NCBI RefSeq assembly: GCF_003334385.1
Contig: NZ_QOWN01000020.1
DNA: 64,000 nucleotides
Strand: one strand, 5' to 3'
Origin: Escherichia coli
GTDB lineage: Bacteria; Pseudomonadota; Gammaproteobacteria; Enterobacterales; Enterobacteriaceae
Shown here: piece by piece, positions 3,894 through 56,316 of the stretch
How the letters are laid out: the number at the start of each line of letters is the position of its first letter
Numbering within the stretch: position 1 is the stretch's first letter
Notes under the pieces: model-generated
The model's input: the letters and a program-made list of their open reading frames with translations, nothing else
Databases searched by the model: none
What the model was told of the DNA's origin: nothing
Program-made: the position numbers and the translations under genes

Positions 3894-5024
3894 ATGATTC
3901 CATTTAACGCACCGCCGGTGGTGGGAACCGAACTCGACTATATGCAGTCGGCAATGGGTAGCGGCAAACTGTGTGGCGATGGCGGTTTTACCCGTCGCTG
4001 CCAGCAGTGGCTGGAGCAACGTTTTGGCAGCGCCAAAGTGTTACTGACGCCGTCCTGCACCGCTTCGCTGGAGATGGCGGCGCTGCTGCTCGATATCCAG
4101 CCTGGCGATGAAGTGATCATGCCGAGCTACACCTTTGTCTCCACCGCCAATGCCTTTGTGCTGCGTGGCGCAAAAATCGTTTTTGTGGATGTTCGCCCGG
4201 ACACCATGAACATCGACGAAACGCTGATTGAAGCGGCGATCACCGACAAAACGCGCGTTATCGTGCCGGTCCATTACGCGGGTGTGGCCTGCGAAATGGA
4301 CACCATTATGGCGTTGGCGAAAAAGCATAATTTGTTTGTGGTAGAAGATGCCGCTCAGGGCGTGATGTCCACTTACAAAGGGCGTGCACTGGGAACCATT
4401 GGTCATATTGGCTGCTTTAGCTTCCATGAAACCAAAAACTACACGGCGGGCGGTGAAGGCGGCGCGACGCTGATTAACGATAAAGCGTTAATCGAACGAG
4501 CCGAGATCATCCGTGAAAAGGGCACTAACCGCAGCCAGTTCTTCCGTGGTCAGGTCGATAAATATACCTGGCGCGATATTGGCTCCAGCTATTTGATGTC
4601 CGATCTGCAAGCTGCATACCTGTGGGCGCAACTGGAAGCAGCGGATCGTATCAACCAGCAACGTCTGGCGCTGTGGCAAAACTACTACGATGCGTTAGCG
4701 CCTCTGGCGAAAGCCGGGCGTATCGAGCTGCCGTCGATTCCCGATGGCTGCGTGCAGAACGCGCATATGTTCTACATTAAACTGCGGGATATTGATGACC
4801 GGAGCGCGTTGATTAACTTTCTGAAAGAAGCGGAAATCATGGCGGTGTTTCATTACATTCCGCTGCACGGTTGCCCTGCGGGGGAACACTTTGGTGAGTT
4901 CCACGGTGAAGATCGCTACACCACCAAAGAGAGCGAGCGCCTGCTGCGCCTGCCGCTGTTCTACAACCTGTCGCCCGTCAATCAGCGTACGGTAATTGCG
5001 ACTTTGTTGAACTACTTTTCCTGA
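3894..5024 (+). CDS. wecE: dTDP-4-amino-4,6-dideoxygalactose transaminase (DegT/PLP family)
   Basis: 376-aa ORF; DegT/DnrJ-type aminotransferase features; synteny. Confidence 0.93.
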   Translation: MIPFNAPPVVGTELDYMQSAMGSGKLCGDGGFTRRCQQWLEQRFGSAKVLLTPSCTASLEMAALLLDIQPGDEVIMPSYTFVSTANAFVLRGAKIVFVDVRPDTMNIDETLIEAAITDKTRVIVPVHYAGVACEMDTIMALAKKHNLFVVEDAAQGVMSTYKGRALGTIGHIGCFSFHETKNYTAGGEGGATLINDKALIERAEIIREKGTNRSQFFRGQVDKYTWRDIGSSYLMSDLQAAYLWAQLEAADRINQQRLALWQNYYDALAPLAKAGRIELPSIPDGCVQNAHMFYIKLRDIDDRSALINFLKEAEIMAVFHYIPLHGCPAGEHFGEFHGEDRYTTKESERLLRLPLFYNLSPVNQRTVIATLLNYFS

Positions 5025-12975: not shown

Positions 12976-13081
<106 letters not shown>

Positions 13082-28960: not shown

Positions 28961-29064
28961 GCCGGATGCGGTGCTGCGCACCTTATTTGGCCTAAAAAAT
29001 CATTCAGATTCAATAAATTGCAACGTCATGTAGGCCGGATAGGGCGTTTACGCCGCATCCGGCA
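28961..29064. repeat. BIME/REP element pair with central CAATAAATTGCA motif
   Basis: GCCGGATGCGGTGCTGCGCACCTTATTTGGCC and inverted GTAGGCCGGATAGGGCGTTTACGCCGCATCCGGCA. Confidence 0.85.
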
Positions 29065-34674: not shown

Positions 34675-36504
34675 GTGGCGCAGGCGGAAGTGTTGAATCT
34701 GGAGTCCGGAGCTAAACAGGTTTTACAAGAAACCTTTGGCTACCAACAGTTTCGCCCCGGCCAGGAAGAAATTATCGACACTGTGCTTTCCGGCCGCGAT
34801 TGCCTCGTCGTCATGCCCACTGGTGGCGGAAAATCCCTTTGCTATCAAATCCCTGCCTTATTGCTAAACGGCCTTACCGTGGTTGTTTCACCGCTGATTT
34901 CGTTGATGAAAGATCAGGTGGATCAACTGCAAGCCAACGGCGTGGCGGCGGCGTGCCTTAACTCGACGCAAACCCGCGAACAGCAACTTGAAGTGATGAC
35001 AGGCTGCCGCACCGGGCAAATTCGTCTGCTTTATATCGCCCCGGAACGCCTGATGCTGGATAACTTTCTTGAGCATCTGGCGCACTGGAATCCGGTGTTA
35101 TTAGCCGTTGATGAAGCGCACTGTATCTCCCAATGGGGCCACGATTTCCGCCCGGAATATGCCGCGCTCGGTCAGTTGCGCCAGCGGTTCCCGACGCTGC
35201 CGTTTATGGCGCTGACCGCCACAGCCGACGACACCACGCGCCAGGATATCGTGCGCCTGCTGGGGCTGAACGATCCGCTGATTCAAATCAGCAGTTTTGA
35301 CCGTCCGAATATTCGCTACATGCTGATGGAGAAGTTCAAACCGCTCGATCAGTTGATGCGCTACGTGCAGGAACAGCGCGGTAAGTCAGGCATTATCTAC
35401 TGCAACAGCCGCGCGAAAGTAGAAGACACCGCTGCGCGCCTGCAAAGCAAGGGAATTAGCGCGGCGGCCTATCATGCCGGGCTGGAAAATAATGTTCGCG
35501 CCGATGTGCAGGAAAAATTCCAGCGCGATGACCTGCAAATTGTGGTGGCGACGGTGGCGTTCGGCATGGGCATCAATAAACCAAACGTTCGCTTCGTGGT
35601 CCACTTTGATATTCCGCGCAATATCGAATCCTATTATCAGGAAACCGGACGCGCCGGGCGTGATGGCCTGCCCGCGGAAGCGATGCTGTTTTACGATCCG
35701 GCTGATATGGCGTGGCTGCGCCGTTGTCTGGAAGAGAAGCCGCAGGGGCAGTTGCAGGATATCGAGCGCCACAAACTCAATGCGATGGGCGCGTTTGCCG
35801 AAGCGCAAACTTGCCGTCGTCTGGTATTGCTGAACTATTTTGGCGAAGGGCGTCAGGAGCCGTGCGGGAACTGCGATATCTGCCTCGATCCGCCGAAACA
35901 GTACGACGGTTCAACCGATGCTCAGATTGCCCTTTCCACCATTGGTCGTGTGAATCAGCGGTTTGGGATGGGTTATGTGGTGGAAGTGATTCGTGGTGCT
36001 AATAACCAGCGTATCCGCGACTATGGTCATGACAAACTGAAAGTCTATGGCATGGGCCGTGATAAAAGCCATGAACATTGGGTGAGCGTGATCCGCCAGC
36101 TGATTCACCTCGGCCTGGTGACGCAAAATATTGCCCAGCATTCTGCCCTACAACTGACAGAGGCCGCGCGCCCGGTGCTGCGCGGCGAATCCTCTTTGCA
36201 ACTTGCCGTGCCGCGTATCGTGGCGCTCAAACCGAAAGCGATGCAGAAATCGTTCGGCGGCAACTATGATCGCAAACTGTTCGCCAAATTACGCAAACTG
36301 CGTAAATCGATAGCCGATGAAAGTAATGTCCCGCCGTACGTGGTGTTTAACGACGCAACCTTGATTGAGATGGCTGAACAGATGCCGATCACCGCCAGCG
36401 AAATGCTCAGCGTTAACGGCGTTGGGATGCGCAAGCTGGAACGCTTTGGCAAACCGTTTATGGCGCTGATTCGTGCGCATGTTGATGGCGATGACGAAGA
36501 GTAG
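34675..36504 (+). CDS. recQ: ATP-dependent DNA helicase RecQ
   Basis: 609-aa ORF from GTG at 34675 ([14 protein letters not shown]); Walker [13 protein letters not shown] box, C-terminal HRDC region. Confidence 0.95.
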
Positions 36505-36567
36505 TCAGCAGCATAAAAAAGTGCCAGTATGAAGACTCCGTAAACGTTTCCCCCGCGAGTCAAATGT

Positions 36568-37188
36568 ATGTTGATGTTATTTCTCACCGTCGCCATGGTG
36601 CACATTGTGGCGCTTATGAGCCCCGGTCCCGATTTCTTTTTTGTCTCTCAGACCGCTGTCAGTCGTTCCCGTAAAGAAGCGATGATGGGCGTGCTGGGCA
36701 TTACCTGCGGCGTAATGGTTTGGGCTGGGATTGCGCTGCTTGGCCTGCATTTGATTATCGAAAAAATGGCCTGGCTGCATACGCTGATTATGGTGGGCGG
36801 TGGCCTGTATCTCTGCTGGATGGGTTACCAGATGCTACGCGGTGCACTGAAAAAAGAGGCGGTTTCTGCACCTGCGCCACAGGTCGAGCTGGCGAAAAGT
36901 GGGCGCAGTTTCCTGAAAGGTTTACTGACCAATCTCGCTAATCCGAAAGCGATTATCTACTTTGGCTCGGTGTTCTCATTGTTTGTCGGTGATAACGTTG
37001 GCACTACCGCGCGCTGGGGCATTTTTGCGCTGATCATTGTCGAAACGCTGGCGTGGTTTACCGTCGTTGCCAGCCTGTTTGCCCTGCCGCAAATGCGCCG
37101 TGGTTATCAACGTCTGGCGAAGTGGATTGATGGTTTTGCCGGGGCGTTATTTGCCGGATTTGGCATTCATTTGATTATTTCGCGGTGA
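36568..37188 (+). CDS. rhtC: threonine exporter (LysE/RhtB family)
   Basis: 206-aa six-TM ORF, LysE-type family. Confidence 0.92.
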   Translation: MLMLFLTVAMVHIVALMSPGPDFFFVSQTAVSRSRKEAMMGVLGITCGVMVWAGIALLGLHLIIEKMAWLHTLIMVGGGLYLCWMGYQMLRGALKKEAVSAPAPQVELAKSGRSFLKGLLTNLANPKAIIYFGSVFSLFVGDNVGTTARWGIFALIIVETLAWFTVVASLFALPQMRRGYQRLAKWIDGFAGALFAGFGIHLIISR

Positions 37189-37211
37189 TGCCAGACGCGT
37201 CTTCAGAGTAA

Positions 37212-37242
37212 GTCGGATAAGGCGTTTACGCCGCATCCGACA
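37212..37242. repeat. single REP unit between convergent rhtC and rhtB
   Basis: GTCGGATAAGGCGTTTACGCCGCATCCGACA palindromic REP. Confidence 0.8.
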
Positions 37243-37249
37243 TTATTTT

Positions 37250-37870
37250 TCACGCATGCCTCGCCGATGCTAACAGCGCTCCCACCAGCATAAACAACGA
37301 GCCGAAAATCTTATTCAGCGCCTTCATCTGCTTTGGTCCTTTAATCCATAGAGCAATCCGTTGAGCAAGGGTGGCGTAACCGATCATCACAATAATATCG
37401 ACCACAATAGTGGTGACGCCGAGCACGATATACTGCATCAGTTGCGGCTGTTGCGGCATGATGAATTGCGGAAATAGCGCCGCCAGAAACACAATACTTT
37501 TGGGATTGGTGAGATTCACAAAAACTGCGCGCTGGAACAAATGTCGACGCGATTGAGTAGAGGCCAGCGATTTAAGGTCAATTGCACCAGCGGCGCGCCA
37601 CTGCTGGATTCCCAGCCAAATCAAGTAAGCCGCGCCTGCCCACTTCAACACTTCAAACGCAATCACTGAGCGGGAAAATAGCGTCCCCAACCCCACGCCA
37701 ACCAGCACAATATGAATCGCCAGTCCGGTCTGAAGCCCAGCAATAGACGCCACCGCGCCGCGATAACCGTGGTTGAGCGAGGTGGTCATAGTGTTGATTG
37801 CACCAGAGCCTGGCGACAGGCTTAAAATGATCGATGTCAGCAGGTAGGCAAACCACCATTCTAAGGTCAT
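37250..37870 (-). CDS. rhtB: homoserine/homoserine lactone exporter (LysE/RhtB family)
   Basis: 206-aa six-TM ORF, paralog of rhtC. Confidence 0.92.
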
Positions 37871-37980
37871 GATGAACTCCCGGTGTGTCTATTTTTGTGC
37901 CACAATACGCTACTGTCGCAGCGTTGTGTCAGGCACGCTAAAAAAAACGATTTTACGTGGTTTAAGAGGCAGATTACCCG

Positions 37981-39003
37981 ATGTTTCAGCAGCAAAAAGA
38001 CTGGGAAACAAGAGAAAACGCGTTTGCTGCTTTTACCATGGGACCGCTGACTGATTTCTGGCGTCAGCGTGATGAAGCAGAGTTTACTGGTGTGGATGAC
38101 ATTCCGGTGCGCTTTGTCCGTTTTCGCGCACAGCACCATGACCGGGTGGTAGTCATCTGCCCGGGGCGTATTGAGAGCTACGTAAAATATGCGGAACTGG
38201 CCTATGACCTGTTCCATTTGGGGTTTGATGTCTTAATCATCGACCATCGCGGGCAGGGACGTTCCGGTCGCCTGTTAGCCGATCCGCATCTCGGGCATGT
38301 TAATCGCTTTAATGATTATGTTGATGATCTGGCGGCATTCTGGCAGCAGGAGGTTCAGCCCGGTCCGTGGCGTAAACGCTATATACTGGCACATTCGATG
38401 GGCGGTGCGATCTCCACATTATTTCTGCAACGCCATCCAGGTGTATGTGACGCCATTGCGCTAACTGCGCCAATGTTTGGGATCGTGATTCGTATGCCGT
38501 CATTTATGGCACGGCAGATCCTCAACTGGGCCGAAGCGCATCCACGTTTCCGTGATGGCTATGCAATAGGCACCGGGCGCTGGCGCGCGTTGCCGTTTGC
38601 TATCAACGTACTGACCCACAGCAGACAGCGATATCGACGTAACTTACGCTTCTATGCTGATGACCCAACGATTCGCGTCGGTGGGCCGACCTACCATTGG
38701 GTACGCGAAAGTATTCTGGCTGGCGAACAGGTGTTAGCCGGTGCGGGTGATGACGCCACGCCAACGCTTCTCTTGCAGGCTGAAGAGGAACGCGTGGTGG
38801 ATAACCGCATGCATGACCGTTTTTGTGAACTCCGCACCGCCGCGGGCCATCCTGTCGAAGGAGGACGGCCGTTGGTAATTAAAGGTGCTTACCATGAGAT
38901 CCTTTTTGAAAAGGACGCAATGCGCTCAGTCGCGCTCCACGCCATCGTTGATTTTTTCAACAGGCATAACTCACCCAGCGGAAACCGCTCTACAGAGGTT
39001 TAA
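37981..39003 (+). CDS. pldB: lysophospholipase L2 (alpha/beta hydrolase)
   Basis: 340-aa ORF; nucleophile elbow GHSMGG; synteny. Confidence 0.93.
   Translation: MFQQQKDWETRENAFAAFTMGPLTDFWRQRDEAEFTGVDDIPVRFVRFRAQHHDRVVVICPGRIESYVKYAELAYDLFHLGFDVLIIDHRGQGRSGRLLADPHLGHVNRFNDYVDDLAAFWQQEVQPGPWRKRYILAHSMGGAISTLFLQRHPGVCDAIALTAPMFGIVIRMPSFMARQILNWAEAHPRFRDGYAIGTGRWRALPFAINVLTHSRQRYRRNLRFYADDPTIRVGGPTYHWVRESILAGEQVLAGAGDDATPTLLLQAEEERVVDNRMHDRFCELRTAAGHPVEGGRPLVIKGAYHEILFEKDAMRSVALHAIVDFFNRHNSPSGNRSTEV

Positions 39004-56132: not shown

Positions 56133-56316
<184 letters not shown>

Follow-up and report, generated by a model that had tools for sequence, protein, structure and literature searches.

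About 60% of the REPs of Escherichia coli lie between convergent genes, and a REP occupies 207 of 704 convergent spacers (~30%), as reported in a recent study (10.64898/2026.03.23.713779). The SEnd-seq catalogue of Ju, Li and Liu (2019, Nat Microbiol), given again in Table S16 of that study, places 78 REPs within 306 overlapping bidirectional terminators. For REP325 in yjdM-yjdN, the source of naRNA4, the same work describes experiments in which the repeat acted as a partial, partly Rho-dependent terminator and also stabilised the mRNA upstream of it. Row 318 of Table S16 lists an overlapping bidirectional termination site of 41 nt, labelled REP289, at MG1655 positions 4008395-4008435, found in log and stationary phase, classed as 'gene_convergent_transcription' and with rhtC:rhtB:recQ as affected genes. 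The shared 3' end of the rhtC and rhtB transcripts at REP289 is, in other words, already published. The threonine and homoserine export roles of RhtC and RhtB are likewise established, and both genes are used in threonine-production strains, where a 'native terminator' has been cloned alongside.

Here, we analyse REP289 within a 64,000-nucleotide stretch of DNA (hereafter, the window), which is E. coli DNA carrying the well-known rhtC/rhtB locus. As in the other SEnd-seq overlapping bidirectional terminators, a stem-loop sits in the 41-nt overlap between convergent genes and the site was detected in two growth phases; nothing sets REP289 apart from the 78 other REP-containing terminators. REP325 belongs to the same repeat family and a dual role in the 3' UTR has been proposed for it as for REP289, but REP325 comprises 12 hairpins between tandem genes and its role is experimental, whereas REP289 is one hairpin between convergent genes and its role would follow by analogy. 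The rhtC/rhtB layout is common rather than special, since a REP lies in about 30% of the intergenic regions between convergent E. coli genes. The anatomy of the locus, the identity of the repeat, its folding and the overlapping mapped 3' ends come from our analysis or from published data. We consider it likely that REP289 is a single shared bidirectional 3'-end element of two anciently diverged convergent exporters of the RhtB family. In this conserved convergent slot, REP289 is a filler particular to its lineage rather than a regulatory device that has itself been conserved.

Results

Two anciently diverged exporters end tail to tail

The positions of all features are collected in Table 1. 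The coordinates, the equal lengths and the 61-bp gap between stop codons that had been given in a preliminary description of this DNA agreed exactly with the ORF list and the sequence. The gene names, and those of the neighbours recQ and pldB, were taken from the RefSeq annotation of identical or near-identical DNA. The locus differs from that of MG1655 by a single synonymous base change in 1451 bp, and its DNA was matched in all 5426 complete E. coli genomes (in 5425 with 80% or more of the length covered), with the annotated order recQ, rhtC, rhtB, pldB.

Table 1. Features of the rhtC-rhtB locus, in window coordinates.
Feature	Position	Strand	Basis
rhtC, threonine exporter, LysE/RhtB family, 206 aa	36568..37188	+	ORF list, NCBIfam, Pfam, RefSeq annotation
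Small 5-bp hairpin GAUGC-CAGAC-GCGUC overlapping the rhtC stop codon; uncertain part of the element	37187..37201		RNA fold
61-bp spacer separating the stop codons of rhtC and rhtB	37189..37249		Read from the sequence; identical in MG1655
Published zone of overlapping opposite-strand 3' ends, 41 nt	37206..37246		SEnd-seq, row 318 of Table S16
Extended hairpin in rhtC-sense RNA: REP stem plus AGAGUAAG/CAUUAUUU pairing, then UUUUCA	37206..37248	+	RNA fold
REP289, single Y-type palindromic unit	37212..37241	canonical orientation GTCGGATGCGGCG...CTTATCCGAC-TTAC on the rhtB (-) strand	Inverted repeat, exact core copies, Rfam, Table S16
U-rich tract TTATTTTT 3' of the REP, running into the rhtB stop codon (TCA, 37250-37252)	37243..37250	+	Sequence
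rhtB, homoserine/homoserine-lactone exporter, LysE/RhtB family, 206 aa	37250..37870	-	ORF list, NCBIfam, Pfam, RefSeq annotation

Both proteins passed the models for the superfamily, the subfamily and the individual exporter: RhtC scored 413.8 bits against the NCBIfam equivalog NF007591 (cut-off 288) and RhtB scored 403.4 bits against NF007812 (cut-off 209), while TIGR00949, the model of the RhtB family (TC 2.A.76), gave 236 and 204 bits, respectively, against a curated cut-off of 184, and the Pfam LysE model PF01810, likewise above its curated cut-off, gave 204 bits (1.9e-60) and 186 bits (8.9e-55). RhtC and RhtB are the type members of the family and show no difference from it.

The preliminary description had called the two genes a paralog pair whose duplication might be dated by pairwise alignment. 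Their homology held up, with 20% identity over 182 aa in BLASTP (E 8e-11), but the two are not each other's nearest relatives. Among the six LysE-superfamily proteins of MG1655 that were compared, RhtC scored higher against YahN (94.7 bits) and LeuE (66.2 bits), and RhtB against LeuE (72.8 bits), EamB (53.9 bits) and YahN (50.1 bits), than the two scored against each other (45.4 bits, below their nearest paralogs), and profile scores ranked in the same way. A recent local duplication was rejected on these two grounds, and the alignment permits no date other than "ancient": the duplication is ancient because identity is 20% and neither protein is the other's nearest paralog, and RhtC and RhtB split long before the Enterobacteriaceae, since the orthologues in that family are 81-100% identical to E. 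coli RhtC and RhtB. The equal length of the proteins is a coincidence, because the LysE-superfamily proteins of MG1655 range from 195 to 223 aa. By a rough calculation, the chance that any two of six family members lie next to each other is ~0.007 (15 pairs x ~2/4300), which suggests that the adjacency of rhtC and rhtB is unlikely to have arisen by chance. An ancient tandem origin or functional clustering is plausible, but sequence can demonstrate neither.

The spacer holds a single Y-type REP

The spacer contains one imperfect inverted repeat, GTCGGATAAGGCGT/ACGCCGCATCCGAC, with 14-nt arms that are 86% complementary, and the single REP palindrome that had been noted in the gap is borne out as a Y-type unit. 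Exact copies of its 26-nt core occur at 12979 (-) and 56189 (+) and copies with one mismatch at 29036 and 56288, so that the window holds 5 matches in 64 kb against 0.00 expected from shuffles, and a 121-nt query around REP289 matched each E. coli genome at a median of 4 places. REP289 thus has the dispersed extragenic copies of a REP and lies, as REPs do, 3' of genes, here between two stop codons. It also conforms to the Y-type consensus, an imperfect palindrome of ~30-35 nt reading GCCGGATG..CGCC..ATCCGGC, and aligns with the other window copies as a Y-type unit GTAGGCCGGATAAGGCG...CGCCGCATCCGGCA. Relative to those copies, GCCGGAT reads GTCGGAT and ATCCGGC reads ATCCGAC; both arms have changed and pairing is kept, such that one C-G pair of the outer stem is compensated to T-A. 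In addition, one substitution alters the GTAG/CTAC tail from GTAGGCCGGAT to GTAAGTCGGAT, so that GTAGG reads GTAAG. Rfam returned a partial match to the REP325-derived naRNA4 (36.7 bits, E 2.7e-4) and, across 36000-38500 at E<=1, only one chance-level match besides this REP-related one.

Further REP copies in the window lie at 12977-13006, 29034-29063 and 56187-56315, the last of which forms a BIME-like array where Y-type (GCCGGAT) units alternate with Z-type (GCCTGAT) units. Unlike such BIME clusters, REP289 is a single unit.

The repeat folds on both strands and is not a canonical terminator

In the rhtC sense, the RNA of 37205-37252 folded at -21.4 kcal/mol (z -6.94), and in the rhtB sense the fold reached -22.4 kcal/mol (z -3.9); in neither case did any of 200 shuffles fold as well. 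A REP being a palindrome, the repeat is predicted to form a stable stem-loop in both RNAs, of about -17 to -22 kcal/mol.

We rejected the reading of this stem-loop as a canonical intrinsic (Rho-independent) terminator. A simple consensus terminator scan called no site at REP289 on either strand, the stem, like those of other E. coli REPs, is imperfect and carries a 2x2 internal bubble, and the U-tract has interruptions on the + strand and is missing from the - strand. The core stem is followed by AUUAUUUUU in rhtC-sense RNA and by UUACUCUG in rhtB-sense RNA (U at 6 of the first 8 nt versus 4 of 8). A score of the d'Aubenton-Carafa type, indicative of non-canonical character only, was negative on both strands. 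There is no room for a second, independent terminator in the 61-bp spacer, whose sole other structure is the small hairpin at the rhtC stop codon. Its variants in Escherichia, GATGC..GCATC, GATGC..GCGTC and GACGC..GCGTC, change both arms and keep the pairing; with three variants only, this is a weak indication that pairing may be conserved there.

Mapped transcripts of both genes end just beyond the stem

Using an offset of 3971189 between MG1655 and window coordinates, we placed the SEnd-seq ends of row 318 on the hairpin. The + strand RNAs end near 37246, ~5 nt beyond the stem and 4 nt before the rhtB stop codon, and the - strand RNAs end near 37206, ~6 nt beyond the stem and 17 nt before the rhtC stop codon. 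The site also has the convergent genes and the spacer stem-loop of its SEnd-seq class. Since the mapped ends stop short of both stop codons, neither mature RNA extends antisense into the opposite gene. The suggestion in the preliminary description that termination is shared at the REP therefore stands as far as shared 3'-end formation is concerned; SEnd-seq does not separate true termination from exonuclease trimming. The Term-seq supplements of Adams et al. 2021 contain no 3' end at REP289, only ends internal to rhtC and rhtB, and neither gene is named in the SMRT-Cappable-seq supplements. With an independent Term-seq dataset lacking an end at REP289, we take the mapped ends with some caution.

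In the mechanism that we propose, the stem-loop would fix the 3' ends of the recQ-rhtC and rhtB transcripts 5-6 nt past the stem, with the consequence that the mature RNAs would overlap only across the ~41-nt REP. REP289 might do so by halting or pausing RNA polymerase, by blocking 3'-to-5' exonucleases, or by both. Because the ends are symmetric despite the asymmetric tails, exonuclease trimming fits as well as termination, and the share that each has at REP289, like any benefit to the cell, is something we infer.

The convergent slot is conserved while its filling changes

Across 80 related genomes, the order recQ-rhtC> <rhtB-pldB was kept in about 75, and the spacer was not conserved. The adjacency of the genes was followed within the Enterobacteriaceae; all matches from the single genome scan had at least 85% identity. 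The stop codons abut (0 bp) or overlap by 4 bp in 12 genomes (Pluralibacter, Cedecea, some Enterobacter), and the spacer is 12 bp in one Buttiauxella genome, 31-114 bp in 41 genomes and MG1655, and 594-1172 bp in 19 genomes (Klebsiella, Kluyvera, some Citrobacter, Pseudocitrobacter and others), with intermediate lengths at two loci (197 bp in Citrobacter sedlakii, 327 bp in Klebsiella oxytoca). Spacers of 31-114 bp nearly always carry a strong, lineage-specific hairpin. The E. coli-type REP is confined to Escherichia, where it is retained at the slot in E. coli, E. whittamii, cryptic Escherichia lineages and E. albertii; nearly all other genera with spacers of this length have a strong hairpin of unrelated sequence. 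The rhtB of E. albertii (L004, 4619-4970) is an internally deleted remnant and the REP beside rhtC is kept, which dates the REP to before E. coli and E. albertii diverged. In Tenebrionibacter (L064), rhtB is absent between rhtC and pldB.

Within E. coli itself the slot exists in two forms. The REP allele is present in 4769-4779 of 5426 complete genomes (88%). In 646 of 5426 (12%), including the ST131 strain EC958, a gene of the Rpn family takes its place, a share behind which over-sampling of ST131 may lie. In these genomes (for EC958: L082, NZ_CP138232.1, 1947-3002, corresponding to window 37189-37249), a 287-aa rpn gene with spacers of 37 bp and 158 bp replaces the 61-bp REP spacer; its product belongs to the recombination-promoting nuclease family (TIGR01784, 180 bits), the gene has no PADLOC match, and the hairpin that separates rhtC from rpn is a different one, TTCCCCCTGATA..TATCAGGGGGAA.

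In other genera, too, the majority of long spacers contain a gene for an Rpn-family nuclease, encoded on the same strand as rhtB and either intact (L014, L016, L020, L030, L034, L035, L043, L044, L048, L052, L062, L065, L066, L074) or decayed (L019, L029, L050, L055, L063, L068). The proteins from Klebsiella, Kluyvera, some Citrobacter, Pseudocitrobacter and others are 63-80% identical to that of EC958, and further lineages hold frameshifted or shrinking rpn remnants of 327-1077 bp, among them the fragment retained in the 327-bp spacer of K. oxytoca. Because such decayed remnants exist, and because Kluyvera species with short spacers keep the rhtC-proximal GCCCACTC..GGGTGGGC hairpin of rpn-bearing Kluyvera, the comparison suggests that an old resident rpn gene may have been lost repeatedly from the slot.

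Discussion

The preliminary description had raised the possibility of transcriptional interference, which would be a regulatory link between rhtC and rhtB. We found no evidence in support of it beyond the geometry of two convergent genes 61 bp apart, and we regard it as very improbable: the mapped transcripts, as catalogued, end before the partner gene, expression is modest (DESeq baseMean of 132 for rhtB and of 596 for rhtC), and the same layout works in relatives with a 0-bp or a 1.1-kb spacer. A related account, in which converging rhtC and rhtB polymerases meet head-on at the stem-loop and are released by trailing polymerases, draws on the membership of REP289 in the bidirectional SEnd-seq set and on a model from the SEnd-seq group, where head-on collision is needed against read-through and the nascent stem-loop positions the collision (10.1101/2022.10.23.513370). 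The same expression levels imply that simultaneous convergent polymerases should be rare, however, and the test site of that model is given as ynaJ-uspE, not REP289, which leaves collision-driven termination unlikely in our judgement. More weight belongs to the view that REP289 is an exonuclease barrier only, which we think a real though lesser possibility. Polymerase would then read through in both directions and end diffusely downstream, for example by Rho acting on untranslated antisense RNA in the partner gene, with PNPase, RNase II or RNase R trimming the transcripts back. In favour of this view, the ends lie 5-6 nt past the stem on both strands, with a U-rich tail on one side only, the hairpin is not called as an intrinsic terminator, and REPs are classically known for protecting the mRNA upstream of them, as shown for REP325 (10.64898/2026.03.23.713779). 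That study also reports, on the other hand, that REP-ended mRNAs did not have longer half-lives genome-wide and that REP325 attenuated transcription as well, and the + strand tail AUUAUUUUU would make some release at this point more likely.

Two further accounts concern what the repeat does for the cell, if anything. REP289 might brake the translation of RhtB, with the terminating ribosome stalling, trans-translation following and RhtB output falling while RhtC is unaffected. REPs less than 16 nt from a stop codon have been described as lowering translation, and this was proposed for 260 of 496 REPs (Liang et al. 2015 as cited in PMC12306157); by this spacing rule rhtB qualifies, as its REP starts 8 nt past the stop codon (3 nt with the extended stem), and rhtC, at 23 nt, does not. 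As about half of all REPs satisfy the rule, the spacing is not distinctive, and we consider the brake doubtful. A selected two-in-one device, in which a shared bidirectional insulator is combined with a strand-specific brake on RhtB 8 nt from its stop codon and the REP/rpn dimorphism sets lineage-specific export of threonine and homoserine, seems to us improbable. We consider it as doubtful as the brake that REP289 arose by selfish or neutral insertion and serves no selected function at this site, such that any palindrome or none would suffice. Enterobacteriaceae spacers do run from a 4-bp stop overlap to ~1.17 kb with unrelated sequences, 12% of complete E. coli genomes have an rpn gene instead of the REP, and REPs are described as mobile repeats that accumulate between convergent genes (10.64898/2026.03.23.713779). 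Against pure neutrality, a strong hairpin recurs in nearly all spacers of 31-114 bp, with another between rhtC and rpn in the rpn allele, and the REP core is invariant across Escherichia species while its flanks vary.

The comparative data bear in two ways on our preferred reading, a single shared bidirectional 3'-end element. The recurrence of hairpins speaks for a general requirement that some structure be present at the 3' end, whereas the turnover of hairpin sequences and the existence of spacerless genera argue against a regulatory role specific to the REP. The 12 of 80 related genomes in which the stop codons abut or overlap by 4 bp, and the 646 of 5426 E. coli genomes without a REP at the slot, weigh against the preferred reading, as the function of REP289 is dispensable or replaceable there. 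In ten genomes with a 0-bp gap (L046, L054, L061, L067, L069, L070, L072, L075, L076, L079), we observed that the 3' coding end of rhtB contains, ~3-35 nt from its terminus, an inverted repeat of 8 bp (GGCGCGC..GCGCGCC) that is absent in E. coli; this repeat may serve as an end structure for rhtC transcripts in these genera.

Both genes, their REP and the common end point of their transcripts were already catalogued, and the locus is ordinary; alone it has little significance, and about a third of E. coli convergent gene pairs have this appearance. It could nevertheless be a convenient natural test bed for the roles of REPs, since the same convergent slot holds a REP in 88% of complete E. coli genomes, rpn and other hairpins in 12%, unrelated hairpins in other genera, and no spacer at all in Pluralibacter and Cedecea.

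Two minor observations concern the datasets used. The published Term-seq ends internal to the ORFs lie each near the 5' end of its own gene, 43 nt into rhtC (window 36611, +; MG1655 4007800; scored as not Rho-dependent) and 131 nt into rhtB (window 37739, -; MG1655 4008928), and could be sites of premature termination or processing. Finally, an assembly labelled Chryseobacterium sp. 18061 (L069, CACSKA010000013.1) carries a recQ-rhtC-rhtB-pldB block of the Enterobacteriaceae type, with 75-89% protein identity to E. coli, and is probably contaminated or mislabelled.
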